A stretch of 63,143 bases of DNA, from the NCBI GenBank assembly GCA_049999805.1, contig JBNGIO010006164.1, forward strand, positions 151,939 to 215,081, in the 5' to 3' direction. This DNA comes from Folioceros fuciformis. Its lineage: Eukaryota. Position numbers and translations under genes: made by a program. The notes below the pieces were generated by a model, which made no database searches, was not told where the DNA came from, and saw only the letters and a list, made by a program, of their open reading frames with translations. Positions 388-55,884 of this stretch are shown here, one piece after another (the first letter of the stretch is position 1; each line of letters begins with the position of its first letter).

Positions 388-2351
388 ATGGCTGTCTGGA
401 GCCTTGTAATAGAAGCAGGTAAAGGGCAACAGGATCCGTTGCGCGCACCTGTCTCATGGACCCAACAGATCGTTGGGTTCACCGAAATTCTGGGAAGGAT
501 CCCCGGTCGCCTGACTTCAACAGACCAAGCTTTGGCACACAAGCAGCTTGGGATGGGCACCAGAAAGCCAGCCCGTCCAATGGCATGTCTTGCTGCTGTT
601 GACAGGTCTGCAGGCGTGGAGAGCGGCGTTAGGTCTGAAACCGTGAGCGAGCTATGTCATATTGGTCGGCTCACTGAGGCTGTTGAGGCTTTGGAAGTTC
701 TGGTGCAGACAGGCCCTTGCATTTCCAAATCTCTCTTGTACGTTGTCCTGAAGAAATGTGTAGCGAAGAACGATCTGTTGCTGGGCAGGCGCGTCCATGC
801 TTGCATGGTGAGAGGGGGTAATCAGGCAGACTCTTTCCTGGGCTTCCATCTTCTGCGAATGTATGCTTCCCATGGCAGGTTGCAAGACGCGATGGGTGTG
901 TTTGAGGTGGTTGGCAAACCAGATGCCTTCACGTGGTCTGCCATCATTTCTTCGCATGTGAAGCACGGGCAGGATAAGCAGGCCATACGACTGTATCATC
1001 GGATGCGGAGGTCAGGTGTGGAGCCTGATGGGCATGTCTTTGTGGCAGCCCTTCAGGCTTGTTTAAGGGTTTCAGACTTGAGATCTGGGCAGCAGGCACA
1101 TGCCGATGTGTTGGCCAGTGGTATCGATCCTGATTTACTGCTCGGTAACTGCTTGGTGAGCATGTATGCAAAGTGTAGTAGCTTGGAAGACGCTGAGAGA
1201 GTGTTTGATGGACTTGGGCAAAAGGACGTTGTGACTTGGAATGCCATGATAGTAGGATATTCGCAGCAAGGCAGGGGGCTGAAAGCGCTCCGCCTCCACA
1301 GTGCTATGCAAGAAGAGGGCATGGCTGTACCCACTCGAGTGACATTTCTGGTCCTGCTGCAGGCGTGTGCAAGTCTGGGCAACTTGGCCTTGGAGAAGGG
1401 AAAGAATCTTCATTCGCAAATCAGAGATCGAGGACTTGAAGCTGATGTGGTTCTTGCCAACTGTTTGGTAAAGATGTATGCNNNNNNNNNNCCATGATAG
1501 CAGGATATTCCCAGAAAGGCATGGGCCATGAAGCCCTTCGTCTCTACAGGGCTATGCAGGAAGATGGCATGAATATACCCAATTCCGTCACATTTGTATG
1601 CCTCTTACAGGCATGTGCCAGTGTTGGCACGACGGCATTAGAGACTGGTAAGCACCTTCATCAGCTCATCAGGGAACGAGGATATCAGGCTGATACGTTT
1701 GTAGTACCCGATTGGCATTGCCATACCCGATTCTGTAACTTTTTCGTGCCTCCTGCAGGCGTGTGCGGTTGTTGGGACCCCAGCTGTGGAGAAGGGAAAG
1801 TAGCTTCATAAACAGTTTTGAGAACGAGGATTCGAAGCCGATGCCTTTTTAGCAAACAGTTTGGTGAACATGTATGCAAAATGTGGCAAGTTGGACGACG
1901 CACAGAGACTATTTCAAGGACTTGGTAAGAGGAATGTTGTTACCTGGAATGCCATGATAGCAGGGTATTCCCAGCAGGGCATGGGCCACGAAGCTCTTCG
2001 GCTCTCCAGTGCTATGCCGGAAGAAGGCATGGCTGTGCCTGATTCCGTCACATTTGTGAGCCTTCTGCAGGCATGTGGAAATGTGGCAGCTTTGTACCTG
2101 GGAAGGCAACTAAACGCGCAGATCAAAGCACAAGGGCTTCAAACCGATTTGTCCGTAGCCTCAAGTTTGATTAACATGTATGGGAAGTGCGGAAGCATGA
2201 TTGATGCACATCAGGTGTTTGATGAGTCACCTGAACGAGACGTTGTCGCGCGGAGTGCACTGATTGCAGGCTACACTTCTCAAGGCGATACTGAAATGGT
2301 GTTCGATTTAGTACAGATCTGTACGGGTTGGTGCACAGTTTCGTCGTTGGG
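388..2351 (+). pseudogene. PLS-class PPR gene (WW-cluster type), disrupted
   Basis: PLS triplets (MYAKCGSLEDA, VVTWNAMIAGYSQQG, VTFVCLLQAC) across ORFs 388-1497, 1494- and 1861-. Deletion/frameshift near 1705-1715. In-frame TAG 1801-1803 and TGA 1819-1821. After P2 'FDLVQ' the sequence jumps in another frame to the E+ relic TDLYGLVHSFVVG (2313-2351). N-gap at 1482-1491. Confidence 0.85.
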
Positions 2352-2823: not shown

Positions 2824-5800
2824 TCATATTGGAACACGTGTCTGCTTCAGCGATGATAAACCCTGCGGACGTTTTTCGTCCCCAACCAGGAAACTGTGCA
2901 CCAGTCCGTGCTCGTCCGTCCACCAACTCTGACCTGGCTGCTTCCATGCCCTGATTCTTGTTCTCCTCGCATGCATCTGCTGTGCCTGATCCCACATCTG
3001 AGACCCGATGTATATGTTCAACATCAATACATGTGCCGTGGTATCTTTTCTATCTAGCTTCACAGATTCATTAAAAGCAAGTTGGCCAATCTCCACGTTG
3101 CCCCACTTTTGACAGGCACCCAACAGAGTGTGCCAAACTGCAGCTTTAGGTTCCATAGGCATTGTCTCTACGAAAGCTAGTGCCTCATCCAGTTGTCCCG
3201 CACGACCCATGAGATCCACCATGCATGTGTAGTGGTCTCCCGTGGGAATGATGCCGTGGTGCCTGCTCATAGTCTCAAAATATTTCCACCCCTTGTTCAC
3301 TAGGCCCGCATGACTACACACTGCTAGCACACTGAGGAAAGTAATACCGTCTGGCAGCATACCATCCTCTCCCATTCTTTGAACGAGGTCGAACACCATT
3401 TCAGTATTGCCCTCGCAGGTGTAGCCTGCAATCAGTGCACTCCAGGCCACCACGTCCTTTTCGGGCAACTTATCAAAGACCTGCTGTGCATCAACCATAC
3501 GACCAGCCTTTCCATACATGTTAATCAAACTTCCAGCAACATACACATCATCTTGAAGCCCTTGTTGCAGAATCTTTGCATGTAGCTGCCTGCCCACATG
3601 CAAGGCTGCAAGGTCTGCACATGCATGCAGGAGGCACACAAATGTGACGGAATTGGGTACAGCCATACCTTCTTCCTGCATAGCAGCGTAAAGTCGAAGG
3701 GCTTCGTGGCCCATGCCCTGCTGGGCGTATCCTGCGATCATGGCAGTCCACGCACCCACATCCTTTTTACCGAGTCTGTCAAACAATCTCTTAGCATCCT
3801 CCAAGCTGCCACACTTTGCATACATGTTCACCAAACTGTTGATTACAAAGGCATCAGCTTGATATCCCTGTTGTCTTATCTGCGTATGAAGATGCTTCCC
3901 CTTCTCCAGCCCTGGAGTGCCCAAACTTGCACATGCCTGAAGGAGGCTCACGAATGTGACGGAATTGGGCACGGCCGTGCCTCCCTCTTGCATAGCACAG
4001 TAGAGACCAAGGGCTTCCTGCCCCATGCCTTGCTGTGAATATCCTGCTATCATAGCATTCCACGTGACCACATTTTTTTGATCAAGCCCATTGAACACCC
4101 TCTTGGCGTCCTCCAAGCTGCCACACTTGGCATACATGTTTACCACACTGCTGCTTACGAACACATCAGCTTGGTGTCCTCGTTCTCTAATCTGCACATG
4201 GAGTTGCTGCCCAATCTCCAATGCTGGTGTGCCCACACTTGCACATGCCTGGAGGAGGTACACAAATGTCGTAGCATTGGCTGCACACATGCCTTCCTCT
4301 TGCATAGCACTGTAAAGACAAAGGGCTTCGTGGCCCATGCCCTGCTGGGAATACGCTGCTATTATCGCAGTCCAGGCGACCTCATTCTTGTCACCGATTC
4401 TGTTGAAGAATTTCTGTGCTTCGTCCAAGCTGCCGCACTTTGCATACATGTTTACCAAACTGCTGGCTATAAGCACGTCACCTTCATGTCCTCGTTCTCT
4501 AATTTGTCCGTGAAGCTGCTTCCCCTTCTCCAATGCTTGTGTGCCCAGACTTGTGCATGCCTGCAGGAGACACAAAAAAGTCACAGAATCAGGCACAGCA
4601 ATCCCTTCATCTTCCATATCACTGTACAGAAGTAGGGCTTCCTGGCCCATGCCCTGCTGGGAATATGCTGCTATCATGGCAGTCCACGTCACCACATCCT
4701 TTTGACAAAGTCCGTCAAACACTCGTCGGGCATGTTCCAAGCTTCCACATTTTGCGTACATGTTCACCAAGCTGTTGCCTACTGACATATCCTTGTGGTG
4801 CCCACTTTGTCTAATTTGTGCATGGAGATGCTTACCTCTCTTCAAGGCTGCTGTCCCCACACTCGTACATGCGTGCAGGAGACACACAAAGGTCACAGAA
4901 TCGGGCACACATCCACCTTCAACTTGCATAGCACTGAACAGCGAAAAGGCTTCCTGGACCATGCCCTGCTGTGCATAGCCTGCTATCATAGCATTCCACG
5001 TCACCACATCTTTGTGACGAAGGCCATCAAAAACTCTTCGAGCATCTTGCAAGCTGCCGCACTTTGCATACATGTTCAGCAAGCAATTCCAACCAAACAA
5101 ATCAGGCTCAATGCCACTGACGATAACATCAGCATGCACCTGCTGCCCAGTTTTCAAGTCTGCTCCTTTCGCACAAGCCTGCAGGACGGCCACAAACACA
5201 TGGGCGTCTGGCTTCACACCGGACCTGCGCATACGATCGTACAGCTGGGTGGCCGACCTGTGTCGTCCATGTTTAACATGCGCAGAAATGATGGAGGACC
5301 ACATGTAGGCGTCTGGTTCGGCCACCAGTTCAAATACATGCATTGCGTCTTGCAGCCTCCCATGAGAAGCATACATCCGCAGTATGTGATTGCCCAGGAA
5401 CGTATCTGACTCATACCCCTTTCTAACAGTGAAAGCATGGACCCGCCTGCCCAGCACAAGATCCCTGTTCACCACACATTGTTTCAGCACAGCGTAAAAG
5501 AGAGACCTGGAAATAAACAGCTCTGTCTGGACCAGAACTTCCAAAGCCTCCACAGCCTCTCTGAGATGGCCCTCGTAACACAGCTTGCTCACAATATCAG
5601 CCGTCACGCCCTTATCTAATCCCCCGTCGGAGGCACAACGCACAATCTGTATATCCTGAGCAGCAAGCTCCGATTCCAACGAAGTTAGATTAAATCCACT
5701 CAAGTTGTTCAACCAGACGATCTCCTGGGACTGTATGAGCCGGAAGCCTAGCGAACAGAAGTTTTTCCTACTTTGCCAGCAACGTGAAAGCTGTCCTGGC

Positions 5801-15900: not shown

Positions 15901-16876
15901 TATTGCAAACAAACAAATCAGAGCCCACACCAGAGGCAACGGCATGAGCATGCACCTGCTTCCCCGTTGTCAAGTCTGCTCCCTTTGCACAAGCCTGCAA
16001 AGCTGCTACAAAAACATGACTGTCTGGCTTCACAAGTGATGTGCGAATCATGAGTTGATAGAGTTGTATGGCCTCTGCAGCTGCACCTTGTCGAACATGC
16101 GCAGAGATTATGGATGACCACATAAATGCATCCGGTTCGGCAACAGAGTCGAACACATCCATGGCATCTTGCAACCTGCCAAGGGAAGCATACAAGCGCA
16201 GGATGTGGTTGCACAGGAACGTGTCCGACTCGTACCCCGCTTCCACGGTGAAGGCATGGACACGGCGACCTAGAACGAGGTCCTTCGTGTCCACACAAGT
16301 CTTGAGAACAGCATACAGAAGAGGCTTCGAAATGCAACCATCTGTCTGCACCAGAAGGCTCAAAGCCTCAACAGCCTGGCTGAGACGGCCGTCATGACAT
16401 AGTCTCCTCACGGTTTCCGCCGCAACAACCCTACCGCATCCTGCAGACCTGTGAGGGGCAGGACCATCCGGCAGGCTGGAGCTGGATGTAGCACCGACGT
16501 GCACATCCAAAGCAGCCAGCTTCTCATCTCCACGGGCTGGCTTGTGATAGTGGCCGTCGTTCAACCAGAGGACTTCATGGAGGCCTCCAGTATCCGGTGT
16601 ATGTGCCCCGGTATCCCTTCCAAGTGTCTGATCCATCAAAACCTGTGGTGGCAAGCCAGATGGTTTTCCAGCCGAACATTGATGTGGACGAGTTTTAACC
16701 TTCCTTGCAAGAGTGCTGCTGGTTCTGCTATAGCTGCTCCAGCTGATGCTGCTAATGACGGACCCGTTGCTCAATAAAATGCATGTCAGTCGCACGATCT
16801 CTCTTCTACCTTTTAACACACCAAATTGTCCGTGTCGGGTCCTCAAACAGGTTCTCCACAGGAGCTCCTGCAACAT
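12926..16876 (-). CDS. Long PLS-E+ PPR protein, WW-type (SSWTD variant), stops before HxE
   Basis: 1316-aa ORF from ATG 16876 with many PLS triplets. Ends AWKQPGHSSWTDGDGQVHSFLVGD...GYVPHLD...EEEASL, then stop. Confidence 0.93.
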   Translation of the reverse strand: MLQELLWRTCLRTRHGQFGVLKGRREIVRLTCILLSNGSVISSISWSSYSRTSSTLARKVKTRPHQCSAGKPSGLPPQVLMDQTLGRDTGAHTPDTGGLHEVLWLNDGHYHKPARGDEKLAALDVHVGATSSSSLPDGPAPHRSAGCGRVVAAETVRRLCHDGRLSQAVEALSLLVQTDGCISKPLLYAVLKTCVDTKDLVLGRRVHAFTVEAGYESDTFLCNHILRLYASLGRLQDAMDVFDSVAEPDAFMWSSIISAHVRQGAAAEAIQLYQLMIRTSLVKPDSHVFVAALQACAKGADLTTGKQVHAHAVASGVGSDLFVCNSLVDMYAKCGSLEDADRVFSRLARKDVVTWNAMIAGYSQQGMGQEALQVYCAMQDQGFVAPNSMTFACLLQACASLGPPSLNKGIRLHAEMVERKVQMDVVVGCSLVNMYVKCGTLQHAQCVFSSLSQKNVATWNAMIAGYSQKGMGQEAIHVYSAMQEEGKVAPDTVTFVCLFQGCANMGTPALEWGKQLHAQLGDHRLQANVLLVNSLINMYAKCGSLEDAQRVFDGLHQKNVATWNAMITGYSHKGMGQKALDLHSAMQQEGMVVPDAVTFVCLLHACASLGSPALHKGMQLHVQIEEEGLQRDMIVGCSLVNMYVRCGSLQDAQIVFDSLSQKDVVTWNALIAGYSQQDMGQEALCLYSAMLEERIVSPDSVTFVCLLQACASMGTRALKRGKQLHAQIVEGGLLDDVVVGGSLVHMYAKCGSLENAQTVFNRLQEKDAVTWTSLIAGYCQRGLGQEALSLYTAMQQGGAGGATSVTFVCLLQACAILGFLALDKGKELHAQIKEQGLEADLTVGNNLINMYTKCGSLGDAQSVFDRLGEKDVVTWNTMIAGYSHLGMVEEALCLYSAMQNKGSDFPDSVTFSSLLQACASVGITALEKGKQLHGQIEERELEADVVVGCSLVSMYAKCGSLEDAQSVFDRLPERTVVTWNAIIAGYSQQGNFQEALRLYHIMQQESTISPDCVTFVCVLQACAGVAALHVGRKLHVEIKNRGLQADVSVAISLINMYSKSGSMCDAQQVFDALLERDIVAWNALISGYTRLGDSELVIGLFDKVKEDGLQPDGITFLCVIAVCSHVGLVDKGQEYFETMSTQYGIAPTMEHYSCLVDLLGRAGQLNEALAVVRTMPVQPQAEVWRALLGACRKWSNVEVASHAFHEAVKLDEKDSAVYVLMSNIYVSVQLWEKAQAMQARRKAVGAWKQPGHSSWTDGDGQVHSFLVGDTKHPQSHGIYARLKQLVHEMKKQGYVPHLDSSWDVSDDEEEASLVEG

Positions 16877-25300: not shown

Positions 25301-25544
25301 AACCCAACTGCACATCCAACTGGAACTGGGCATCCACCAAAGCTGGCTTGTACAAGCTGTTCACCAAGACGACCTCGTTGAACACCTCTGTCCTTGCCTT
25401 GTTTGTGACCAGGAAACGATGTTTGAAACAGGAGGAATCCCATAGACAGCCCTCGTCTGCATCAACAACAACAGAGCCGAAGAACGCATCTGTGATTGGC
25501 CGGGCGCCACCTCCACACTTCATTGCATTCAGATCCACATTCAT
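22374..25544 (-). CDS. PLS-E PPR protein, WW-type, tail frameshifted
   Basis: 1056-aa ORF ending AWKQPGESWWTDMDGLVHSFVVGD. MKSEGYVPHL continues in another frame (ORF 22394-22624). No HxE. Confidence 0.93.
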   Translation of the reverse strand: MNVDLNAMKCGGGARPITDAFFGSVVVDADEGCLWDSSCFKHRFLVTNKARTEVFNEVVLVNSLYKPALVDAQFQLDVQLGCRGTRPSISSLQAEDRPAGYGCGVTRRTVSQLYQQGHVSEAVEALIVLAHANPDIRIPHHLLYEVLQKCLRRKDLVLGRRVHAVCVKAGYESDTFLCNHLLRMYSSHARLQEAVDVFSVVSKPDAFTWSAIISAHVHHGQARQALQLYLEMRRSSVKPDGHVFVAALQACAREADLETGQQVHADVMASGVGIDLFISSCLVDMYAKCGSLEDAQRVFDGVPERDVVLWNAMMAGYAQQGMGQEALQLYADMQQEGITTADPVTYVCLLQACASVGISALEKGKQLHARIEERGLQADVVLANSLVNMYAKCGSLEDAQGVFDSLRQKNVVTWTSLIAGYSHQGMGQEALCLYSAMQEEGIAAPNSVTFVCLLQACASVGTPALEKGKHLHAQIVEQGLGADVAVANSLVNMYAKCGSLEDAQGAFDRLQERNVVTWTALIAGYSQKGMGEEALSLYGEMQVEGIAAPDSVTFLCLLQACASVGICALDKGKQIHAQIVDEGLLTDDFFASSLVNMYAKCGSLEDAQNVFDTLDQRNVVTWNAIIAGYSQQGKGQEALRLYSAMQEEGLIAPDSVTFVCLLQACASLGTSALENGKQIHARIREQGLEADVFVANSLVNMYAKCGSLEDAQRVFDGLFQKDVVTWNAMIAGYSQQGMSLEAIHLYCGMQNEGTAAPSGMTFVAVLQACADVAALHLGRQLHVDIREQGLEADVFVAISLINMYAKSGSMVDAQQVFNALPAKDVVAWNALIAGYTCQGDSEVVFCLVRRMAEDGVQPDGITFLSVLTACSHAGLVSKGQDYFEDMRGRYGITPMAEHYSCMVDLLGRAGQLDEALMVAKTMPIPADTTVWHMLLGACQKWRNVEVGCHAFNEAVTLDQKDPSAYVLMSNIYISAQMWKEAEEMQGIRKRVGAWKQPGESWWTDMDGLVHSFVVGDRKHRNCEGMHACEVATASLQHEERRIRATSSLVLGGTGQT

Positions 25545-27007: not shown

Positions 27008-27076
27008 GGGTGGAGTGGAGTGGAGTGGAGCGGAGTGCAGGGTGGAGTGGAGTGGAGCGGAGTGCAGGGTGGAGTG
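27008..27076. repeat. GGAGT pentamer microsatellite with a 28-nt higher-order duplication, 5' of the PPR ATG
   Basis: GGGTGGAGTGGAGTGGAGCGGAGTGCA-like unit repeated. Confidence 0.8.
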
Positions 27077-27110
27077 ATCGTCACACTGTCGATGTGCCTC
27101 AACTACCGTC

Positions 27111-30100
27111 ATGGCTGCCAGCTTCCTCAACCCAAAGTGGGCTCCTGGGAATGTCGTGAAAATTAAGCAGCAAGACGTATGGGTCTGTGGTGGTCGCAAT
27201 GGTACACCCCAGCTCTGGCTCAGCCCTGCCGTGTCACCTGGTGTGGGGAAGCTCGAAGGACCGGCAGCAGTTGCTGGAGCCAGCTACGGTCATGACGGCA
27301 GAACGCCACAAGAACAGCAGGAGCTTTTGTGGCAGGATTTCTTCTCGGATCCCGCACAGTGGTGGGATTGCAGGCAGGCTAAGAGAAGTCCCCGCCATCC
27401 GGACTTCAGGCACAAGGCCTCCAGGAAAGCCCTGTGGGTAGACAATCCTAGGAACCCTGGCTGGCTGCACGCTCAGCTAGCTGCGTGGGATGAGCAGGGG
27501 CATGCTGGGACCAGCTCTGGCACAGGGAGCCGACCTGGTCACTGGACACACGGAGAGGATATGTCGGAGGTGGATATCTGTCGGAGGCTGTGTGACAAGG
27601 GCCAATTAGGTGAGGCCATTGAAGCTTTGGACCTCCTGGTGCAGAGGGGACTGCGTTTTGATACTGGTCTTCTCTATTCCGTGCTCAAGAGGTGCATCGC
27701 ACAGAGGGATTTGCATCACGGGAAACGAGTCCATGTCCTCTCTGTTAGAAGTGGTAAGGAGACGGACAGGTTTCTGGGCAACCACATCATACGGATGTAT
27801 GCCTCCCATGGCCTGCTGGAGGACGCGGTGAACGTGTTTTCCAGGATAGCTGCTCCAAACACCTTCGCATGGGCTTCCATTATCAAGGCGCATGCGGATC
27901 ATGGACAGCCTGCGGAGGCCGTGAAATTGTATCGCCAGATGCGGCGGTCGACCATGGAGCCTAACAACCATATATTTGTGGCAGTCCTCAAAGCCTGTGC
28001 TTTGGCGGGAGACCTGGCTTCCGGGAAGGAGGTGCACACCGATATCCTGGAGAGTTCTCATGAACCCGACATGTTTGTTGGCAGCTCCTTGCTGGATATG
28101 TATGCAAAGTGCGGCAGTTTAGAGGATGCTCGTGCTGTGTTTGATGATCTGCCCGTGAAAGATGTGGTGACATGGACTGCCATGATCGCAGGGTATGCTC
28201 AGCACGGACGAGGTCAAGAAGCGCTGGATCTGTACGCCTCCATGCAGCACAACGGCTTGTTACCAGCCAATCACGTCACGTTTGTGTCCCTTCTAAAAGC
28301 ATGTGCCGTTGTGGGTGCTTTGCATCAAGGCATGCAGCTCCATTCGCTGATTCGTAAAAGAGGGCTGGAGAATGATGTGGTCATTGGTAGCTGCCTGGTT
28401 GACATGTACGCGAAATGTGGGAACTTAGAGGACGCTCGAAAGGTTTTTGACAACCTTCCCACTAGAAGTGTGGTGACATGGAATGCCATGTTTGCAGGGT
28501 ATGCGCAGCATAGTCTTGGTCAAGAAGCCATTGATCTCTATGCAAGCATGCAGCAAGAGGGCAAGACACTACCTGATCGTGTTACGTTCGTGTGCCTCCT
28601 CAAGGCTTGTGCCAGCGTCAGGGCTCTGCACCAGGGGAAGCAGCTGCATTCTAGGATTCAGGAAAGGGTGCTGCACACGGATATGGTTGTGGGAAGCTGC
28701 CTGGTTGACATGTATGCCAAGTGTGGGGACATCGAGCTTGCTCGCAGGGTCTTTGACGAGCTGCCCAGGAGGGATGTTGTTACATGGAGCGCAATGATTG
28801 GAGGATATGCCAGTCATGGCCGTGGGCACGATGCTCTTGATCTGTATGCAGTTATGCAAGAGGACGGCGTGGATCCAGCCAATCACATCACTTTCGTGTC
28901 CCTCCTGAAAGCATGTGCGATTGCGGGAGCCTTGCAACAAGGAAAGCAGCTTCATCTGCAACTTGAACAAAGAGGACTCGAAACTGATCTGGTTATTGGC
29001 AACTGTCTCGTTGACATGTATGCAAGGTGTGGAAGCTTAGAGGATGCACGCAGAGTTTTTGACCGGTTATCTTGTAGGGACGTGGTAGCTTGGAATGCGA
29101 TTCTTGGAGGCTACTGTCAGCAGGGGCTTGGTCAAGATGCCTTGGATCTTTATGCAAGTATGCAACAAGAGGTGCTGTCTGTGGGTAATCATGTTACGTT
29201 TGTCTGGCTCCTGAATGCATGTGCCAGTATTGGAGGTTTGCATCAAGGAAAGCAGCTTCATGATGTGATCCAAGACAAGGGATTAGATTCCGATGTGGTT
29301 GTCGGCAACTGTCTGGTGGACATGTATGCAAAATGTGGGAGCTTGGAAGGTGCTCGTAGAGTGTTTGAAACGTTGGCTGTGAAAGATGTGGTGACATGGA
29401 ATAGTCTGTTGAACGGTTATGCTAAACATGGGGATGGCCACAGGGCAATACAGTTTTTCGAAGAAATGCGGGAGGAAAGTGTAGAGCCGAATGGCGCCAC
29501 CTTCATTTCTTTGCTGGTAGCGTGCAGTCACAAGGGGCTGGTGAAAGAAGGCCAACGCTATTTTGGGATGATGGAGGAGCAGGGCATCGAGCCAACAGAC
29601 CAGCATCATAACTGCATGATTGATCTCCTTGGGCGGTCAGGGAATTTGGAAGGTGCTGAAAAGTTGTTGCAGTCTGTGCCTTTTGAAAATGATGTTGTAG
29701 GATGGACATCTTTGCTGAGTGCGTGTAAAAGCCATGGAGATGTAGAGCGTGGAAGGCGATGTTTTGAACGTCTGGTACGTTTGGAGCCTCAGACTGCAGC
29801 TGCTTACGTGCTCCTGGGGAATATCTATGCAAACGCAGGCATGTGGAGTGACGCAGAGGAAATCGAAAGGTTGAGAAAGTGCGCAGGTGCGTGGAAAAAG
29901 CCTGCAAAGGCTGGTATCGAAGTGAACAACAAGATGCACGAGTTCACTGTAGGAGACGAGAGACGTGACGTTGCTTCGAAGTTATTGAGCATGAACGTGA
30001 GGGTGCAGGATGAAGGCGGGCACGTGCCTTTGACTGAGCTGGTTCTGAAAGCAGTTTCGGAGAGTGAAAAGGAAGATGCATTGTGTGGACATGCGGAGAA

Positions 30101-30299
30101 GCTGGCATTAGCATATGGCCTGCTCAACACCCCGGAAGGGACAACTCTAGTGGTCACGAAGAACCTCCGCATGTGCAATGACTGTCACAGCGCCACCAAG
30201 ATTATGTCACACCTTGAGCAGCGCCAAATCATCGTAAGGGATGCACACCGCGTGCACTGCTTTGTGGATGGCTCATGTTCATGTGGGGACTGGCATTGA
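27111..30299 (+). CDS. PDF-motif + PLS-E-DYW:KP PPR protein (candidate U-to-C editing factor)
   Basis: 1062 aa. N-terminal LWQDFFSDPAQWWDCRQAKRSPRHPDFRHKASRKALWV, PLS array, WKKPAKAGIEV, GHAEKLALAYGL, CNDCH, C-terminus CSCGDWH. Confidence 0.95.
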   Translation: MAASFLNPKWAPGNVVKIKQQDVWVCGGRNGTPQLWLSPAVSPGVGKLEGPAAVAGASYGHDGRTPQEQQELLWQDFFSDPAQWWDCRQAKRSPRHPDFRHKASRKALWVDNPRNPGWLHAQLAAWDEQGHAGTSSGTGSRPGHWTHGEDMSEVDICRRLCDKGQLGEAIEALDLLVQRGLRFDTGLLYSVLKRCIAQRDLHHGKRVHVLSVRSGKETDRFLGNHIIRMYASHGLLEDAVNVFSRIAAPNTFAWASIIKAHADHGQPAEAVKLYRQMRRSTMEPNNHIFVAVLKACALAGDLASGKEVHTDILESSHEPDMFVGSSLLDMYAKCGSLEDARAVFDDLPVKDVVTWTAMIAGYAQHGRGQEALDLYASMQHNGLLPANHVTFVSLLKACAVVGALHQGMQLHSLIRKRGLENDVVIGSCLVDMYAKCGNLEDARKVFDNLPTRSVVTWNAMFAGYAQHSLGQEAIDLYASMQQEGKTLPDRVTFVCLLKACASVRALHQGKQLHSRIQERVLHTDMVVGSCLVDMYAKCGDIELARRVFDELPRRDVVTWSAMIGGYASHGRGHDALDLYAVMQEDGVDPANHITFVSLLKACAIAGALQQGKQLHLQLEQRGLETDLVIGNCLVDMYARCGSLEDARRVFDRLSCRDVVAWNAILGGYCQQGLGQDALDLYASMQQEVLSVGNHVTFVWLLNACASIGGLHQGKQLHDVIQDKGLDSDVVVGNCLVDMYAKCGSLEGARRVFETLAVKDVVTWNSLLNGYAKHGDGHRAIQFFEEMREESVEPNGATFISLLVACSHKGLVKEGQRYFGMMEEQGIEPTDQHHNCMIDLLGRSGNLEGAEKLLQSVPFENDVVGWTSLLSACKSHGDVERGRRCFERLVRLEPQTAAAYVLLGNIYANAGMWSDAEEIERLRKCAGAWKKPAKAGIEVNNKMHEFTVGDERRDVASKLLSMNVRVQDEGGHVPLTELVLKAVSESEKEDALCGHAEKLALAYGLLNTPEGTTLVVTKNLRMCNDCHSATKIMSHLEQRQIIVRDAHRVHCFVDGSCSCGDWH

Positions 30300-30549
30300 G
30301 TTCTGCAGATGGCTCAAGTGTTGAGAACGAGGATGATTGCAAAGCACGGTGTGGACACGGCTGGGATTCCACGGCAAAAGCCAAATGATTGGTTTGTGGT
30401 GTGTAGCCATTGCGGGCAGTTCAAAAAACTAGGCAAGACATCAGTCACTAAGGACTAAATGTGACATCGCAACAAATTTGTTGAGCTCAAGGCCGACGCC
30501 TTCTAAGTTGCTCGCTGGCAACGAAAACATTTTGTGTAGCCGCCGAACC

Positions 30550-31475: not shown

Positions 31476-31589
31476 CGTAGTGCTCTGCGAATTGCTGCAG
31501 CCTGTGCAGAAGTTGGGAAGGAGTGAAATGGGATTGGAAAGTCGTAGAATGGAGCGGAATGGATTGGGGATGCCAGGGGGTCGGCAAAC

Positions 31590-31598
31590 TTTATATAT
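31590..31598 (-). promoter_or_regulatory. Putative TATA box of the DJ-1/PfpI gene
   Basis: ATATATAAA on the minus strand about 115 nt upstream of ATG 31475. Confidence 0.45.
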
Positions 31599-31853
31599 CC
31601 ATCCCTACCAGCCTTCCTTATCCTTCGTATCGTGACGGAGTCATATCCTGACGAAGTCCCATCCGAAGAAGCATTCCTGGCTAATCACTGACTGTCCCGC
31701 TCCCGTTCCCTTTCCAGAGAAGAGACGCAAAAGTACCTTGCATTATTGGTGGACACGGAGAAAGACGGCCATCACTGTGGACATGGACGCCCTCCAGTTC
31801 GTACTTTCATCCTTTGCAAATTCTTGTCAGCGCACTGCCAACTTGCTTCCAAG

Positions 31854-31941
31854 CTCCGTCGATTCCACGGCATCTCCGTCGATTCCACGGCATCTCCGTC
31901 GATTCCACGGCATCTCCGTCGATTCCACGGCATCTCTGTCG
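31854..31941. repeat. 20-bp tandem repeat, 4 copies plus a partial copy
   Basis: CTCCGTCGATTCCACGGCAT head-to-tail with no spacers. Confidence 0.95.
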
Positions 31942-33218: not shown

Positions 33219-36200
33219 TCACGCCCGATCCCCACACGAACAGGAGCCATTTGCAAACCGGTGCACACGGTGGGCATCCCTTACAATGATCTCTCGCCTC
33301 TCCAGGCGTGACATTATCTTGGTGCTCCCATGGCAGTCATTGCACATACGAAGGTTCTTGGTCACGACCAGAGTTGTGCCATCTGGAGTGTTTACAAGGC
33401 CGTATGCCAATGCCAGTTTCTCCGCATGTCCACACAATGCATCTTCCTTTTCGCGGTCAGACATGCTAGTCTTGAGCACCAGCTCCTTGTGTGGCACATG
33501 GCCTCCTTCTACCTTCAGCCTCAGATTCATGCTCCTCAACGTTGAACCAATGCCAACCCTGTCTTCCCCCACAGTGAACACGTGCACCTTCTTCTCCACT
33601 TCAATGCACGCCTTGGCAGGCTTCTTCCATGCACCTGCGCACTTCCTCAATCTTTCCACTTTCTCTACATCCGTCCACAACCCAGCATTGGCAAACATGC
33701 TCCCCAAGAGAACATACGGCGACGCATCTTCAGGTTCCAAGCACACAAGGCGTTCAAAACATCTGCGAGCTCGCTCTAGGTCACCGTGGATCTTGCAGGC
33801 ACTCAGCAACGATGTCCATCCCACTGCCTCGTTGGTGAGGGCCACAGATTGCAGCACCCTTTCTGCTTCCTCCAGGTGGCCCGAACGGCCCAGAAGATCA
33901 ACCATGCAACTGTGATGGTAATCAGTGGGCGCAATACCATGCTCCTCCACCATCGTTTTAAAATGTTGTCGTCCTTCGTTCACCAGCCATGCATGACTGC
34001 ACGCAACCAAAAGACAACTAAACGTAGCTTCGTTAGGCTTCACCCCCTCCTCTACCATCTCTTCAAAACACTTCAAAGCCATATGCCCATCGCTGTGTTC
34101 GGCATACCCATTCAGCATGGCATTCCAAGTCGTCACATTTCTGCTAGGCAGTCTATCAAACACCTGGCGGGCGTCCTCCAGGCTCCCACACTTTGCATAC
34201 ATGTCCACCAGGCTGTTCCCCACAACAACATCACCCTCCAGTCCCCTTTCCCGAATCAGAAAATGCACAAGCTTCCCCTGATGCAAAGCGCCTACGCTTG
34301 CACACCCTTTCAAGAGCCACATGAATGTGACGAGATTGGCTGGGATGATGCTCTCCTGCTGCATACCTCTGTAAAGCTCCAGGACTTCTTGTCCACAACC
34401 GTGCTGAGCATACCCTCCAATCATGGCGTTCCATGTTACGACATCCCTTTTCGCCATTGCGTCGAACACTTTGCGAGCATATTCTAAGCTACCACACTTT
34501 GCATACATTTCCACCAGGCAGTTACACACAACAATATCTAGTTCGAATCCTCTTTCCTGAATCAGGGTATGCAACTGTTTTCCCTGCTGCAATGATCTCT
34601 CACTGGTACACGCTTTCAGGAGGCACACAATCGTGACTTGATTAGCTGGAGTGACCCCTTCCTTCTGCATGCAAGAATAAAGCTGAAGGGCATCTTCACC
34701 CCGCGAATGTCGCACATATCCAGCAATCATGGCAGTCCACGTCACAACATCTCTTGCAGGCAATCTGTCAAACACCGTCCGAGCATCCTCGATGCTCCCA
34801 CATTTTGAATACATGTCCACAAGGCAGCTGCCAATACCAACCTCAGCTTCCAGTCCATTTCGCTGGACCAGAAAATGGAGGTGCTTACCCTGATGCAGAT
34901 CTCCCACACTAGCACACGCATTTAAAAGGCACACAAAAGTAACTCGGTCCGCTGGAGTCATGCCGTTCTGCTGCATCCTTCTAAACAGGTCCAGGGCTTC
35001 CTCACCAAACCCACGCTGAGAACATCCTGCAATCATAGCAGTCCAAGTGACCTCGTTCCTTACTGATAACCTTTCAAAGACAACGCGCGCGTCCTCCAAG
35101 CTCCCACATTTGGCATACATATCCACCAGACAGCTGCCAACAACCACATCAACTTCCAACCCCTTTTCCTGGATCACCAAATGGAGATGTTTACCAGACT
35201 GCAAATCTCCGATGCTGCCACAAGCTTTCAGAAGACCAGCATATGTAAAGTGATTTGCAACATTGGGGGCCCCTTGCTCCATAGTTGCATAAAGTTTCAA
35301 AGCTTCCTGGCCAAATCCATGCTTAGAATACGCTGCTATCATGGTATTCCAAGTCACAACGTCCCGGGTGGCCATCAGGTCAAAGACTGCGCGAGCATCC
35401 TCCAGGCTACCACATTTTGCATACATGTCCACCAACGAGTTGCTAACGAATATGTCTGGTTCACATGCGCCAACGACAATATCATCATGGACATGCTTTC
35501 CAGTAGCAAGATCCCCTGCAATCGCACATGCTTTGAGAACTGCCACAAAAATATGATTATTAGGCTTCACAGCGCAATGTTGCATCCGTCCATAAAGGTC
35601 GATGGCTCGAGTAGGCTGTCCATGATCTGCATGCGCCTTGATAATGGAAGCCCAGACGAAGGAGTTTGGCAAATCCAGGTTGGTCAGGACTTGCGTTGCT
35701 TCTTCCAACATGGCATGAGAAGCATACATTCGGATAATGTGGTTGGCCAGAAAAGAATTAGCCCCATGCCCGCTTCTCAAAGCAAGGAAATGAACACGCC
35801 TGCCAAGAGGCAAACTTTTGTGCCCTGTACACCTCTTGAGCAGGGTGTAGAGAAGACATGTGTCAACATAAGCTCCTTGCTGCACTAGGCATTCCATAGC
35901 TCCAATAGCCTCAATCAGCTCTCCCTCCTCACACAGTTTACTCCAGGTTTGGATCTGCTTATCTCGTTCATACCTCCTCACCAACCTGCAAATGTTAGCA
36001 CCAGGAGGCAACATTGAGGAGGAAGAGACAGGTGATCCAGCTGCCAGTTGAGCATCCAGCGTGGCTAGCTTCATCTCCAGCCAAGCAGGATTGTAGCGGT
36101 TGTTTAGCCACAGGGGCTCCTTGGTCACCTTATGCCTGAAGTCGGGATGACGAGGACTCTTCTTGTCCTGCCTATTGTCCCACCACTCGGCCGGATGTGA

Positions 36201-36419
36201 GAAAAACTGTTGCCACAATTTCTCCTGTCTATCTTTCAGTGAGGTCGTCCGTTCACTGCCATTGTCTGCACAAGGACGTGCTCTTATGTCACACTGCCCT
36301 GCACTGCCTGGTGTGAGTGGGTGAGGGTGGAAAGAGCAGGATAAGGCTCCGACCTGCAAAGCAACCTCTTCCTGTAGTGGTGGCATCCCTCCACTGACGA
36401 GAAGCGGCTGGAGAGCCAT
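33219..36419 (-). CDS. PDF-motif + PLS-E-DYW:KP PPR protein (candidate U-to-C editing factor)
   Basis: ORF 33219-36446 with first ATG at 36419. LWQQFFSHPAEWWDNRQDKKSPRHPDFRHKVTKEPLWL, WKKPAKACIEV, GHAEKLALAYGL, CNDCH, ends CSCGDRA. Confidence 0.95.
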   Translation of the reverse strand: MALQPLLVSGGMPPLQEEVALQVGALSCSFHPHPLTPGSAGQCDIRARPCADNGSERTTSLKDRQEKLWQQFFSHPAEWWDNRQDKKSPRHPDFRHKVTKEPLWLNNRYNPAWLEMKLATLDAQLAAGSPVSSSSMLPPGANICRLVRRYERDKQIQTWSKLCEEGELIEAIGAMECLVQQGAYVDTCLLYTLLKRCTGHKSLPLGRRVHFLALRSGHGANSFLANHIIRMYASHAMLEEATQVLTNLDLPNSFVWASIIKAHADHGQPTRAIDLYGRMQHCAVKPNNHIFVAVLKACAIAGDLATGKHVHDDIVVGACEPDIFVSNSLVDMYAKCGSLEDARAVFDLMATRDVVTWNTMIAAYSKHGFGQEALKLYATMEQGAPNVANHFTYAGLLKACGSIGDLQSGKHLHLVIQEKGLEVDVVVGSCLVDMYAKCGSLEDARVVFERLSVRNEVTWTAMIAGCSQRGFGEEALDLFRRMQQNGMTPADRVTFVCLLNACASVGDLHQGKHLHFLVQRNGLEAEVGIGSCLVDMYSKCGSIEDARTVFDRLPARDVVTWTAMIAGYVRHSRGEDALQLYSCMQKEGVTPANQVTIVCLLKACTSERSLQQGKQLHTLIQERGFELDIVVCNCLVEMYAKCGSLEYARKVFDAMAKRDVVTWNAMIGGYAQHGCGQEVLELYRGMQQESIIPANLVTFMWLLKGCASVGALHQGKLVHFLIRERGLEGDVVVGNSLVDMYAKCGSLEDARQVFDRLPSRNVTTWNAMLNGYAEHSDGHMALKCFEEMVEEGVKPNEATFSCLLVACSHAWLVNEGRQHFKTMVEEHGIAPTDYHHSCMVDLLGRSGHLEEAERVLQSVALTNEAVGWTSLLSACKIHGDLERARRCFERLVCLEPEDASPYVLLGSMFANAGLWTDVEKVERLRKCAGAWKKPAKACIEVEKKVHVFTVGEDRVGIGSTLRSMNLRLKVEGGHVPHKELVLKTSMSDREKEDALCGHAEKLALAYGLVNTPDGTTLVVTKNLRMCNDCHGSTKIMSRLERREIIVRDAHRVHRFANGSCSCGDRA

Positions 36420-53073: not shown

Positions 53074-55884
53074 TTAATGGTGATCTCCGCAAGAACAAAA
53101 CCCATCCACAAAATGGTGGACACGGTGTGCATCTCTGACGATGATTTCTCGCTTCTCTATTTTCGACATTTTCTTAGTGCCGTTGTGGCAGTCATTGCAC
53201 ATCCTTAGATTCTTCGTGACCAACAAAGTTGTACCATGTGAAGTGTTTAGGAGGCCGTAAGCCAAGGCCAGTTTCTCCGCGTGTCCGCACAATCCGTCAT
53301 CGTGCTCTCTGCTAAAACCTCCCTCCGTCACCACCTGACCATGCACTGCTTTGCCTTGTTTGTCTTCTAACTTCTCACCTACACTGCTCATCTTGGAGGA
53401 AACGTCATCCCTTTCCTCCCCAACAAAAAAAGTGTGAACCCGATAGTCTACCTCGATGCAGGCACTTGCAGGCTTCTTGCAAGCACCTGCAGTCTTTCTC
53501 AGCCTTTCTATCCGGTCGACATCCCTCTGCCTTCCAGCTTTAGCATAGATATCGGCCATGATCACGTATGCTGCTGCATTCTGGGGTTCGAGTTTCACCA
53601 GTTGCTCAAAACATCGCCTTCCCTTGGTAGTATCGCCATGACTTTTGCAGGCACCAAGCAAAGTCGTCCAACCTACAACGTCGTTTTCGAACGGCATGGT
53701 GCATAGCATGTTTTCTGCCTCTTCTAGATGGCCTGACCGCCCCAGAAGATCCACCATGCAGTTATAATGAACAGCTGTGGGTACGATACCGTAACGTTCC
53801 TGCATAGTTTTGAAGTATTGCTGACCTTCTTCCACCAATCCCGAATGACTGCATGCAACCAAAAGACACACCAAAGAGGTGTCATTGGGTTCGACTCCGT
53901 GGTGTTGCATCTCTTGAAAGCACCAGAGTGCCGTCTGCCCGTCGTTGCTCTGGCCATATCCATTCATCAGAGCATTCCATGTCACTACATCTTTGGCAGG
54001 CAATCTATCGAAAAGTCTACGGGCGTCCTCCAAGCTCCCACATTTTGCATACATGTCCACCAGACTATTGCCAACAATCACATCCCCTTCAACTCCCCTT
54101 CTCCGAGCCTCATCATGGAGCTGCTTTCCTTGTTGTAGAGCTCCCACACTGGCACATACTTTCAGGAGGCACACGATTGTAACGTCGTTGCCGGGTGTCA
54201 TGCCCTCCTGTTGCATGCGTGTGAACAGGGACAGTGCTTCTTGAGCATAACCATTGTGAGCATACCCTGTGAGCATGGCTGTCCAAGTCACCACATCTTT
54301 CGTCTGCAAACCGTCGAACACATTACGAGCATGCTCTACGCTGCCACATTTCGCATACATGTCCACGAGGCTGCTTCCAATGACTAGATCAGGTTCGAGC
54401 CCTCTTTGCTGGATGTGAGAGTGCAGCTGCTTGCCCAGATGCAAAGCCCCAGTGCTGGCACATGCTTTCAAAAGGCACGAAAACGTGACATAATCACCTG
54501 GAGTCATGGCTTCCTCCTGCATCATTGAATGAAGAGTGAGGGCCTCTCCAAAACGCCCATGCTGAACATAGCCTGTGAGCATGGCATTCCATGATACGAC
54601 ATCTTTGATCTGCAAGCTGTCAAACACTCTACGAGCATCCTCCAGGCTGCCGCATTTAGCATACATGTCTACCACACAATTGGCAACAAGGGTGTCAGTT
54701 GCAAGACCTCTTTCTTCGATTTGACGGTGCAGGTCGCTGCCCTCACGTAATGCCCCAGTGCTGGCACATGCATTCAACAGGCACACAAACGTTATCCGAT
54801 CGGCTGGAACCAGGCCCTCTTTTTGCATACTTGCATACAGGGAGAGGGCTTCTTGAGCCATTCCCCGCTCAGCATACCCTGCAATCATTGCAGTCCAGGT
54901 CACCACATCCCTAGTGAGGAGACTGTCAAACAATTTGCGAGCATCCTCCACGCTCCCGCATTTTGAGTACATGTGCACCAGGCAGTTTTGGACAAACATA
55001 TCCGGTTCAAGTGCACTTCGCAGAACGTCAGCATGAACCTGCTTCCCAGATGACAGATCTGCTGCTCTAGCGCATGCGTTGAGGACCGGCACAAACGTAT
55101 GATTGTCTGGCCTCACACTGGACTGTCGCATGTGGCGGTAAAGTGCAATGGCCTGCACAGGCTCTCCACGTTCAACATGTGCCAACATGATGACAAACCA
55201 GGAGAAAGCGTTGGGTGCGGGCAACTTGTGGAAAGCCTGCAAGGCCTCTTGTAAGGTGCCATGAGAAGCGTACATGCGAAGAAAGTAGTTGGCCAGCAAT
55301 GTCCGCGACTCATACCCGCTTGCTATAGCGATGGCATGAAGCCGCCTGCCAAGCTTGAGATCCCTATCCGCAAGGCACCTCTTGACAACACGATAGAAAG
55401 GATATGCAGGAACATAAGATCCTCGCTGCACCATAAGGTCCAACACAACTACCGCCTCCTCCGTAAACCGTCCTTCCTCACCCCATTCGCCCCACTTCAC
55501 ATCAGCCCCAGATGGCAAAAAGCTTCCCACTCTGCCACAGGTGAGGAGGGGGGACTGTCAAACACACACAAATTCTAATGGTCCCGTCCCGACAAATTCA
55601 TTCACGTCCGTTAGCAACCGAATACAAAAGCAACATGTTCCGAACCTGCTGCTAAATCCCTCACAGCCAACTCTTCCGCTCACACACTCCTCCGCTGAAA
55701 ACTGGTAGGCATGCAGAGAAGCAGGCGGCCCGGATTTGCGTTGCTCTGCTGTGCTTCGAAGCGACGACACACGTCTGCACCAATCCTCCAAAGCCAGAGG
55801 GCTGCTGCGCTGCTGACAGACCTTGCCTTCAACCAGGCTCCGGGCACCGACATGGCCGATCATCAATCTGCCTAGCCCCTTCAT
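53074..55884 (-). CDS. PLS-E-DYW:KP PPR protein (candidate U-to-C editor) without PDF motif, 2 exons
   Basis: Main ORF 53074-55530 has CKKPASACIEV, GHAEKLALAYGL, CNDCH and ends CSCGDHH. Exon 1 (55884-55646, ATG) joins in frame through a GT-AG intron at 55645-55532. Confidence 0.9.

Follow-up and report, generated by a model that had tools for sequence, protein, structure and literature searches.

An OSB-type PDF motif is conserved at the N-terminus of two DYW:KP-type PPR editing factors encoded in Folioceros fuciformis

PPR editors are usually viewed as a targeting peptide followed by a PPR tract and E/DYW domains, and the PDF motif as a hallmark of OSB proteins in genome maintenance. The window analysed here, a stretch of 63,143 nucleotides of Folioceros fuciformis (GCA_049999805.1, contig JBNGIO010006164.1, positions 151,939 to 215,081 of the forward strand), raises the question of whether a PDF motif at the start of a PPR editing factor is a maintained part of that protein or a mere passenger, and whether such fusions constitute a family. 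A first-pass annotation had proposed that the gene referred to here as gene B is the second of two PDF-PLS-DYW:KP genes, that the fusion is a family, and that the motif is under selection. The coordinates of all features are collected in Table 1.

Judged by its sequence, gene B is an intact nuclear gene encoding a PPR RNA-editing factor of the PLS class with DYW:KP hallmarks. Its reading frame runs from an ATG at 36419 to a stop at 33219-33221 and encodes, in this order, a presequence, the PDF motif, a linker, a PLS PPR tract with 9-12 stretches of tandem P/L/S repeats recognised by Pfam, an E motif and a DYW:KP domain. The peptide quoted in the first-pass annotation was found as given, plus four further residues, inside this gene, together with every part expected of a second PDF-PLS-DYW:KP gene (PDF, PLS tract, E motif and DYW:KP hallmarks). 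The divergent N-terminal presequence is presumed to be an organelle targeting peptide. In the DYW domain, a KPAKA box replaces the PG box (33609-33623 in B, 29898-29912 in A), HAE and CNDCH provide the HxE and CxxCH zinc ligands of the deaminase, and the protein ends in DRA. In A and B, and likewise in the window's third KP gene, the active site reads HAEKLA, with Ala and not HSE, and the C-terminal triplets of all three differ from DYW. Both A and B also have a Lys at position 88 of their last 133 residues, a numbering inferred by counting from the C-terminus, in the context TLVVTKNLRMCN.

Table 1. Positions of gene B, its paralogue and related features in the window (aa, amino acids)
Feature	Coordinates	Strand	Details
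Gene B	33219..36419	-	uninterrupted intronless ORF, 1066 aa + stop
Gene B presequence, residues 1-61	36237..36419	-	20% identity to A, dN about 1.0
Gene B PDF motif, profile envelope	36042..36248	-	E 6.4e-27, 329-instance PDF profile
Gene B PDF core, residues 68-122	36054-36218	-	translates to LWQQFFSHPAEWWDNRQDKKSPRHPDFRHKVTKEPLWLNNRYNPAWLEMKLATLD
Gene B fast-evolving linker, residues 123-160	35940..36053	-	between PDF and first PPR-like helices
Gene B PLS-class PPR tract, residues 161-877	33789..35939	-	Pfam PPR_2 1.3e-92, PPR 1.3e-90
Gene B E1/E2 region, about residues 878-932	33624..33788	-	Pfam E_motif residues 878-939, 8e-13
Gene B DYW:KP-type domain	33222..33623	-	Pfam DYW_deaminase residues 973-1064, 2.2e-33
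Gene A, paralogue, architecture as B	27111..30299	+	1062 aa; C-terminus DWH; 62% identity to B over 1003 aa
Gene A PDF motif	27309..27503	+	profile E 5.5e-25, 82.3 bits
Frameshifted PDF remnant (DPTDRWVHRNSGKDPRSPDFNRPSFG)	459..539	+	5' end of PPR gene 388-1497, profile E 0.012
Decayed in-frame remnant, PDF C-terminal half (FRLIQSQEIVWLNN...)	5644..5775	-	PG-type PPR gene 2824-5838
Decayed remnant (HEVLWLNDGHYHKP...KLAALD)	16484..16576	-	PPR gene 12926-16876; blastp E 2e-4, 45%/31 aa
Decayed remnant (EVVLVNSLYKPALVDAQ)	25305..25394	-	PPR gene 22374-25544; weak blastp E 6e-3, 35%/31 aa
Third DYW:KP-type PPR gene, without PDF	53074..55434	-	KPASA, HAEKLA, CNDCH, ends DHH

The OSB literature describes the PDF motif as about 50 aa long with a conserved Pro-Asp-Phe signature (PMC6963530). 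With some 50-60 residues, many of them aromatic or basic, it is a module that the literature searched reports from OSB proteins only. In gene B this signature is present as P92, D93 and F94, with the flanking W, WWDNR, HK and LW residues. Across 40 aligned PDF sequences, 7 columns were invariant and 10 more were conserved at 90% or above, the conserved residues of B being W69, F73, P76, W79, W80, D81, R83, K86, P92, D93, F94, H96, K97, L103, W104, P111 and W113; all signature residues are kept in both A and B, in agreement with the first-pass annotation. When the PDF profile was run against all six-frame ORFs of the window, the motif of B scored 88.4 bits, and B is indeed slightly closer to the OSB consensus than A, as had been claimed (WWDNR vs WWDCR); apart from A and B, the remnant at 459-539 was the sole match below E 1. 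A phmmer search with 71 aa of B returned 774 matches at E<=1e-3, of which 289 reach E<=1e-10. Many PDF matches are named OSB1, OSB2 or OSB3 by their sources. An SSB-like OB domain was found in 74 of the 150 phmmer matches listed, and in 10 non-PPR top matches scanned with Pfam SSB, five scored above the cut-off and two more below it. By these sequence criteria, we regard the PDF of gene B as a true homologue of the OSB PDF. Pfam returned no family with the 55-aa peptide, and the PDB gave no match by sequence at E<=10 for the motif. A word-index search likewise found nothing when B residues 55-125 were compared with proteins of about the same length as B, which reflects a limit of the word index, since exhaustive and profile searches did find relatives. 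Because the PDF is absent from Pfam, domain surveys and PPR-specific annotators overlook it.

On the other hand, A and B are not themselves OSBs, since their proteins gave no Pfam SSB match at E<=1; the PDF module alone is in common. Its position also differs, being N-terminal in gene B (residues 62-125 of 1066) and C-terminal in OSBs. An AlphaFold2 model of the 88-aa PDF segment has a mean pLDDT of 83.5 and a pTM of 0.65, and the motif may fold on its own as a small alpha-beta-beta-alpha unit held by a flexible tether. With this model, Foldseek gave no clear match (best E 3.9), VIA-align reached a best Z of 4.1 with none of 48161 chains at Z>=5, and the ESM Atlas offered no usable match for the PDF. 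These results of the fold searches indicate neither a new fold nor a lack of relatives.

Genes A and B lie tail to tail, with a small spliced DJ-1/PfpI-like gene between them, and the motif occupies the same relative position in these convergent paralogues (residues 73-127 in A, 68-122 in B), as the first-pass annotation had noted. Its further observation that transit and linker sequences look unrelated was borne out: A and B are 20% identical over 60 codons of the presequence and 26% over 31 of the linker, against 59% over the 61 aligned codons of the PDF (36 of 61 positions identical vs 20 of 91 in the flanks, Fisher p 6e-6). When dN was computed region by region, the PDF (0.27) matched the PPR tract (0.26), with values of 1.0 for the presequence and 1.23 for the linker, so that the motif does not diverge as fast as its flanks. 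The corresponding dN/dS was about 1 in the linker and about 0.13-0.15 in the PPR tract, ratios that are rough because the two paralogues have reached saturation in dS (1.2-2.0). A contig of run X2, from a related organism with about 91% nucleotide identity, shows 12 non-synonymous and 4 synonymous codons among the changes listed for the presequence, and 5 and 7, respectively, among those for the PDF; residues 78-104 have no non-synonymous change among those listed (core vs presequence, Fisher p 0.016). Taken alone, the non-synonymous to synonymous contrast between these orthologues is not significant (p 0.12). We consider the PDF to be constrained because its dN resembles that of the PPR tract, its flanks are nearly free to change and no non-synonymous X2 change is listed in its core. 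These substitution patterns thus indicate that the motif is under purifying selection in A and B while its flanks drift, and the proposal of a selected motif, as opposed to a passenger, is upheld.

Other PPR genes of the window would show the fate of the motif if it is not maintained, since four neighbouring PG-type PPR genes appear to hold decayed or frameshifted PDF remnants. The one at 459..539 is out of frame with the ORF of its PPR gene. The three in-frame remnants were recognised by weak pairwise matches and by position, and the profile search (E<10) misses them in genes 2824-5838, 12926-16876 and 22374-25544; the remnant at 5644..5775 matches the PDF of B at a blastp E of 1.4e-4 in a single comparison (36% over 44 aa). 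With the PDF of B as blastp query, no remnant was seen in genes 6515-9532 or 10142-12511. The profile also gave no match near the third KP gene, whose ORF begins within the first PPR-like helices. The decay in these four neighbours, the third KP gene without a PDF and the lack of a seed-plant PPR protein with a PDF among the matches listed argue that PPR proteins in general tolerate the loss of the motif.

The contigs of four sequencing runs were also compared with the window; the kind of run was guessed, and their depth and gaps say nothing on expression. One contig of run X1 covers 27073-28029 without a single difference, spanning the presequence, PDF and first PPRs of gene A, and an X1 contig shows two GT..AG-type joints in the neighbouring gene. 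The X1 contigs give a weak hint of transcription, with no listed run recorded as RNA. The PDF of B lies outside every contig piece listed.

The fusion proved to be a much wider family than the first-pass annotation had supposed. PPR proteins made up 14 of the 150 PDF matches listed from phmmer and 52 of the 120 from the profile search, and among the matches listed we counted at least 62 distinct PDF-PPR cluster representatives from seedless land plants, in at least five genera. The named sources are Sphagnum spp., Diphasiastrum complanatum (49 representatives and 48 locus tags among the matches listed), Ceratopteris richardii, Adiantum spp. and Pteridium aquilinum. The ORF identifiers of the latter resemble those of transcript assemblies. 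PDF copies lie near the N-terminus in all 52 PPR proteins listed, one of which (P0205) adds a second set at 631-743, and most of these lycophyte and fern proteins have two or three PDFs in tandem, as compared with one in A and B. A full DYW domain is present in 11 of the 52; all 11 end in DYW and are PG-type, as is the Sphagnum protein P0100. An N-terminal PDF followed by a PLS PPR tract is thus, judging from the protein sequences, a widespread architecture in seedless land plants. Within this broad PDF-PLS family, the PDF-PLS-DYW:KP family rests on two genes, as the combination with DYW:KP occurred only in A and B among everything listed.

The PPR-linked PDFs form a sequence group of their own, with SPRHPDF and NPxWV variants, and a jackhmmer search with the SSB domain found no PPR-linked match. 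In a free tree of 155 PDFs over 69 columns, 5 of 152 branches were starred and 19 of the 20 PPR-linked PDFs fell into one cluster of 32 rows, with an SH-aLRT of 19. A single origin of the PPR-linked PDFs was not rejected by the AU test (p-AU 0.896), and the constraint fits better than the free quick tree by 34.7 log-likelihood units. Only this test and the clustering of labels bear on the question, the free tree being without a supported clade, and we would not go beyond saying that the alignment is compatible with one origin.

What might the motif do in an RNA editor? A PPR tract lies on its RNA with the N-terminus facing the 5' end, and the PDF may therefore be seated immediately 5' of the PPR footprint. 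In that place it could act as an auxiliary binder, a sequence-unspecific clamp for single-stranded nucleic acid that raises affinity or keeps the editing site unfolded, while the PPR tract would set specificity and the DYW:KP domain would do the chemistry. Taken as a whole, a conserved OSB-type PDF on a KP editor, serving as a single-stranded nucleic-acid clamp that aids editing, is in our opinion the best explanation and a reasonably probable one. Alternatively, the PDF may have kept a preference for ssDNA and tether the editor to the nucleoid, coupling editing to transcription, for example by way of the strand displaced in transcription bubbles or R-loops, or via OSB-coated ssDNA. In OSBs, ssDNA binding is ascribed to the PDF (PMC6963530, PMC4166229, PMC6451138), and AtOSB1 and AtOSB2 are reported to favour ssDNA over dsDNA or RNA (PMC4166229), a preference that a DNA tether fits better than an RNA clamp. 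The two or three tandem PDFs of the lycophyte and fern proteins, resembling OSB arrays, and the long, fast-evolving linker would also suit a tether. However, the analysis does not distinguish binding to DNA from binding to RNA, whole OSBs were used to measure the preference, and the PPR-linked PDFs with their own variants may have shifted in specificity. We therefore see the nucleoid tether as rather unlikely.

A role apart from nucleic acids, in which the PDF would promote oligomerisation, dock onto OSBs or further components of the editosome, or direct the protein to a site within the organelle, appears improbable to us. The motif directly follows the presequence, AtOSB2 has been reported as a tetramer (PMC6963530), and most of the conserved residues, being aromatic, could build a hydrophobic core or an interface; nevertheless, the PDF of OSB1 alone is described as sufficient for ssDNA binding (PMC6963530), and A and B have kept every signature residue. 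Still less credible is a functionless PDF, whether carried along neutrally in A and B or produced by an error of the assembly or gene model. Gene B is known here from sequence alone and neighbouring paralogues let the motif decay without losing their ORFs, but the PDF has the dN of the PPR tract, 4-5x below that of both flanks, both ORFs are uninterrupted, and the in-frame architecture is common to two paralogues, the contig of a related organism and the 62 representatives from at least five genera. The passenger reading is thus largely refuted. Extending the clamp or the tether further, the PDF might be a functionally required and hitherto unrecognised accessory domain of a large and ancient class of organelle RNA editors in seedless land plants, which we offer only as a tentative idea.

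If this idea holds, the PDF of OSBs would count as a mobile module for single-strand binding, common to genome maintenance and RNA editing. It might then help natural U-to-C editors to work efficiently and could be added to synthetic PPR editors. The PDF-PPR proteins link two fields between which the literature searched shows no citations. That the PDF raises RNA affinity or editing efficiency, or localises editors to nucleoids, is a directly testable idea, with a bearing on how lineages with heavy editing cope with so many sites and on better C-to-U and U-to-C designer editors.

Among known systems, A and B resemble the PPR-DYW:KP proteins, which are candidates for U-to-C RNA editing in hornworts, lycophytes and ferns and with which they share the PLS tract, the E motif, KP for the PG box, HAE for HSE, CxxCH and a C-terminus other than DYW. 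KP in place of PG and the active-site Ala are given as DYW:KP features in PMC9478123, and the conserved Lys88 of the 132/133-residue domain in PMC11845758. The ends DRA, DWH and DHH are close, though not identical, to the hornwort variant DRH (PMC9478123), GRP being another described from hornworts; this likeness would by itself point to a hornwort. U-to-C conversion is shown in passages of these papers for designer KP proteins only (PMC9478123, PMC11845758), and for A and B such activity is predicted from their hallmarks. A and B have a PDF upstream of the PPR tract, an extra N-terminal domain being unmentioned in the relevant passages of the same two papers. With OSBs, they share a PDF with all signature residues, and both are presumably organelle-targeted nuclear products. 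In OSBs, by contrast, an SSB-like OB fold precedes the C-terminal PDFs, of which there is at least one, and the proteins act on mtDNA or ptDNA recombination, whereas A and B have no OB fold and place an N-terminal PDF before an RNA-editing apparatus. The PDF-PLS proteins of Diphasiastrum, Sphagnum, Ceratopteris, Adiantum and Pteridium share with A and B the N-terminal PDF, the PLS repeats, the E motif and, in some, a DYW domain, and their PDFs fall into one group with the PDFs of A and B; these entries are mostly named 'hypothetical protein', most have two or three PDFs, and none of those listed is KP-type. We found no description of a PDF-PPR fusion in the papers searched, and the main text of PMC13386178, which catalogues RRM-PPR, MORF-PPR and RanBP2 Znf-PPR fusions, has no occurrence of 'PDF' or 'OSB'. 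The PDF-PPR proteins are like these catalogued fusions in that hallmark organelle nucleic-acid domains are joined to PPR tracts.

[quoted passage not shown] Its frame is intact, and a profile built from 329 PDF instances and run against all six-frame ORFs of the window finds its PDF at E 6.4e-27 (88.4 bits) and that of its paralogue, gene A, at E 5.5e-25 (82.3 bits). The motif does lie at the same position in both genes, which stand tail to tail with a small minus-strand gene in between (see table), and the proteins share 62% identity over 1003 residues. By Pfam, each carries numerous PPR repeats together with an E motif and a DYW deaminase domain. In both DYW domains KPAKA replaces the canonical PG box, and HAEKLA, CNDCH and a lysine at position 88 of the last 133 residues are also present. 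Such features (KP box, HAE, Lys88, C-terminal triplet) are described as telling DYW:KP from DYW:PG, and designer KP proteins as having U-to-C activity for which Lys88 is required (PMC9478123, PMC11845758). Carrying these hallmarks, A and B are, by sequence, candidate U-to-C editors.

Features of the window discussed in the text
Feature	Position	Strand	Details
Gene B	33219-36419	-	ATG at 36419, stop 33219-33221; uninterrupted frame, 1066 aa
PDF of gene B	36054-36218	-	residues 68-122; translation LWQQFFSHPAEWWDNRQDKKSPRHPDFRHKVTKEPLWLNNRYNPAWLEMKLATLD
Gene A (paralogue)	27111-30299	+	1062 aa; peptide matching B's PDF at residues 73-127
PPR gene	388-1497	+	
PDF remnant	459-539		frameshifted DPTDRWVHRNSGKDPRSPDFNRP; profile E 0.012
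PPR gene	2824-5838	-	PDF remnant: C-terminal half, in-frame; pairwise blastp E 1.4e-4
PPR gene	6515-9532	-	
PPR gene	10142-12511	+	
PPR gene	12926-16876	-	PDF remnant: C-terminal half, in-frame; pairwise blastp E 2e-4
PPR gene	22374-25544	-	PDF remnant: C-terminal half, in-frame; pairwise blastp E 6e-3
PPR gene	42742-45342	+	
PPR gene	53074-55434	-	third KP-type gene
DJ-1/PfpI-like gene	~30071-31883	-	between A and B; exon 31152-31475, Pfam 7.7e-5, below cut-off
ORF	59252-60097	-	broken by run of N (59977-60076)

The N-terminal peptide of A and B, which matched no Pfam family, is by sequence homology the OSB PDF. This motif of about 50 aa takes its name from conserved Pro, Asp and Phe; published work assigns the ssDNA binding of OSBs to it and reports that in OSB1 it suffices for binding (PMC6963530, PMC4166229, PMC6451138). 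An exhaustive phmmer search of 1.84 billion representatives with 71 residues of B (36036-36248, minus strand) matched 774 proteins at E<=1e-3, of which 289 reached E<=1e-10 and 23 reached E<=1e-30; many were hit in several stretches (up to 13). Among the 150 matches listed, 74 have an SSB-like OB domain on the N-terminal side of the repeats, 14 have PPR repeats, and 62 have neither, being mostly fragments of 102-300 aa or PDF-repeat-only proteins. Pfam SSB exceeded its curated cut-off in five of ten high-scoring non-PPR matches scanned and fell below it in two more; in the search with a second profile, described below, many non-PPR matches are labelled by their sources 'protein OSB1, mitochondrial', 'OSB2, chloroplastic' or 'OSB3'. 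Seven residues (F73, W79, D81, R83, P92, F94 and W113 in B) are invariant in a 40-PDF alignment, and ten more positions are conserved at >=90%.

AlphaFold2, run with a 40-sequence alignment on the 88-aa segment 35997-36260, confidently predicts a small domain (mean pLDDT 83.5, pTM 0.65) in the order helix 61-74, strands WWD (79-81) and FRH (94-96), helix 114-126. No solved structure was alike by sequence, and none gave a clear fold match to this model. Some matched proteins have unusual architectures: Coptis chinensis P0062 has three PDFs followed by a kinesin motor domain, and in Striga hermonthica P0035, annotated as 'Interactor of constitutive active ROPs 2', three PDFs go with an SSB match that misses the cut-off (23 vs 26 bits); both may be merged gene models. 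In Kingdonia uniflora P0005 (1160 aa), 12 PDF repeats were detected.

Between A and B, the PDF is kept (59% identity) next to a presequence and a linker described at first pass as unrelated, and indeed only 20% and 26% identical; the PPR tract shares 62% and the DYW domain (residues 973-1066) 81%. Identical residues number 36/61 in the PDF vs 20/91 in the flanks (p 6e-6). The corresponding dN is 0.27 for the PDF, close to the PPR tract (0.26), with 0.13 for the DYW domain, about 1.0 for the presequence and 1.23 for the linker. The dN/dS ratios, which are rough as dS is saturated (1.2-2.0), likewise place the PDF (0.16-0.30) below the linker (about 1), with the PPR tract at 0.13-0.15, the DYW domain at about 0.10 and the presequence not estimable; the dN contrast is independent of dS. 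A less saturated comparison used contigs of X2, a sequencing run from a related organism (~91% nucleotide identity), on gene A. Among the differences listed, the presequence has 12 non-synonymous and 4 synonymous codons, the PDF 5 and 7, and residues 78-104 no non-synonymous change; as 303 further differences lie outside this list, it may be incomplete. This orthologue comparison bore out the contrast of core vs presequence (Fisher, p 0.016) but not that of N:S (p 0.12). Judged from these substitutions, the PDF is under constraint in A and B.

None of the sequencing runs listed is recorded as RNA. In the DJ-1/PfpI-like gene, however, a contig of a second run, X1, has two joints, across 30768-30862 and 31037-31162, whose ends read CT..AC (GT..AG on the minus strand), so X1 includes spliced, cDNA-like sequence. 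That gene and gene A, on opposite strands, overlap at their 3' ends, over the final 228 nt of A. An X1 contig also equals the window over 27073-28029 and 28190-29325, spanning A's presequence, PDF and PPRs, which hints at, without proving, transcription of A together with its PDF. The 160 nt of A's PPR tract skipped in this otherwise identical contig (28030-28189) lack GT..AG ends and are not a multiple of 3; the assembly probably collapsed PPR repeats here.

The claim that the fusion is a family holds for PDF-PPR proteins. Pfam was run on 10 of the 14 found by phmmer, and a second profile, made from 14 PPR-linked PDFs and searched among longer proteins, scored 8000 candidates, 935 of them at E<=1e-3. 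PPR repeats are present in 52 of the 120 matches listed, with PDF copies near the N-terminus, mostly two or three in tandem; P0205, with a second PDF set at 631-743, is probably a merged gene model. Pooling both searches yields at least 62 distinct representatives from the matches listed, a broad family spread over seedless plants. Diphasiastrum complanatum contributes 49 of the 52 (48 locus tags), plus further clusters; other sources are Sphagnum fallax, S. jensenii, S. tenellum, S. troendelagicum and S. compactum, the ferns Ceratopteris richardii, Adiantum capillus-veneris and A. nelumboides, and Pteridium aquilinum (two EukProt ORFs, ids resembling transcript-assembly ids). No seed-plant PDF-PPR protein occurs among the matches listed, where OSB matches are mostly angiosperm. 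All 11 of the 52 with a full DYW domain end in DYW (PG type), as does P0100 of Sphagnum compactum; the DYW:KP version has so far been seen, among the matches listed, only in A and B.

The PDF tree (69 columns) has little resolution, with 5/152 branches starred, and places 19 of the 20 PPR-linked PDFs within one 32-row cluster; nine of its other 13 rows are fragments of 110-169 aa whose architecture is not visible. In a reduced tree of 94 PPR-linked and OSB-confirmed rows, the PPR/OSB label needs 5 changes vs 18 in shuffles (0/500 as low), the row nearest to the PDF of A is that of B and vice versa, and both belong to a starred group (SH-aLRT 97) made up of 10 PPR-linked and two OSB rows. A tree constrained to keep the 20 PPR-linked PDFs together as a single clade was not rejected (p-AU 0.896) and exceeded the free quick tree by 34.7 log-likelihood units. 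The sequences are compatible with one ancient PDF-PPR fusion without proving it.

At least ten intronless PLS-class PPR genes are packed into the window (1-63143). Four of them near A and B retain only a wrecked PDF; the three in-frame remnants were detected by pairwise blastp only, not by the PDF profile, and the genes bearing them, which have complete C-termini, are PG-type. These decayed copies suggest that the local cluster derives from a PDF-bearing ancestor, the intact motif being left only in A and B. The profile search of window ORFs found no PDF in the third KP-type gene, whose ORF starts inside the first PPR-like helices; it has no presequence, its stop-to-stop frame reaches only ~45 codons upstream of the first ATG, and it may be 5'-truncated or have a missed exon. 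Several PG-type members stop soon after the PG box (truncated DYW). The broken ORF near the window's end has a cysteine/histidine pattern that, we presume, resembles a RING-H2 finger.

We infer that the PDF may serve as a tethered single-strand binder in the editor: as a separate, flexibly attached domain, it would bind single-stranded nucleic acid without sequence specificity. In PPR-RNA complexes the N-terminus of the PPR tract lies towards the RNA 5' end, so an N-terminal PDF would touch the transcript immediately 5' of the PPR footprint. This contact could add affinity or hold the site single-stranded, while specificity would come from the PPR tract and the DYW:KP domain would act on the target U. 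The strongest alternative is a PDF that retains the preference of OSBs for ssDNA over RNA, reported in PMC4166229, and would tether the editor to the transcribing nucleoid. A purely protein-protein or sorting role has a lower probability, and a neutral passenger or artefact is largely excluded, since the PDF evolves about as slowly as the PPR tract, as expected of the selected motif first proposed.

The papers searched on PDF/OSB, PPR and DYW (main texts) describe no PDF-PPR protein, and those listed for Diphasiastrum and PPRs include neither such a paper nor one naming Diphasiastrum. A 2026 OSB evolution paper, which demanded both OB fold and PDF for inclusion, never mentions PPR, pentatricopeptide or fusion, and the main text of a 2026 kingdom-wide editing-factor survey cataloguing domain fusions (PMC13386178) never mentions PDF or OSB. 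The large seedless-plant PDF-PPR family thus appears undescribed in these papers. The C-terminal triplets, DWH in A and DRA in B, are similar to the hornwort 'DRH' variant named in PMC9478123, which suggests that the window may come from a hornwort. Sequence comparison supports A and B as PLS-DYW(:KP) editing factors with an OSB-type PDF module.
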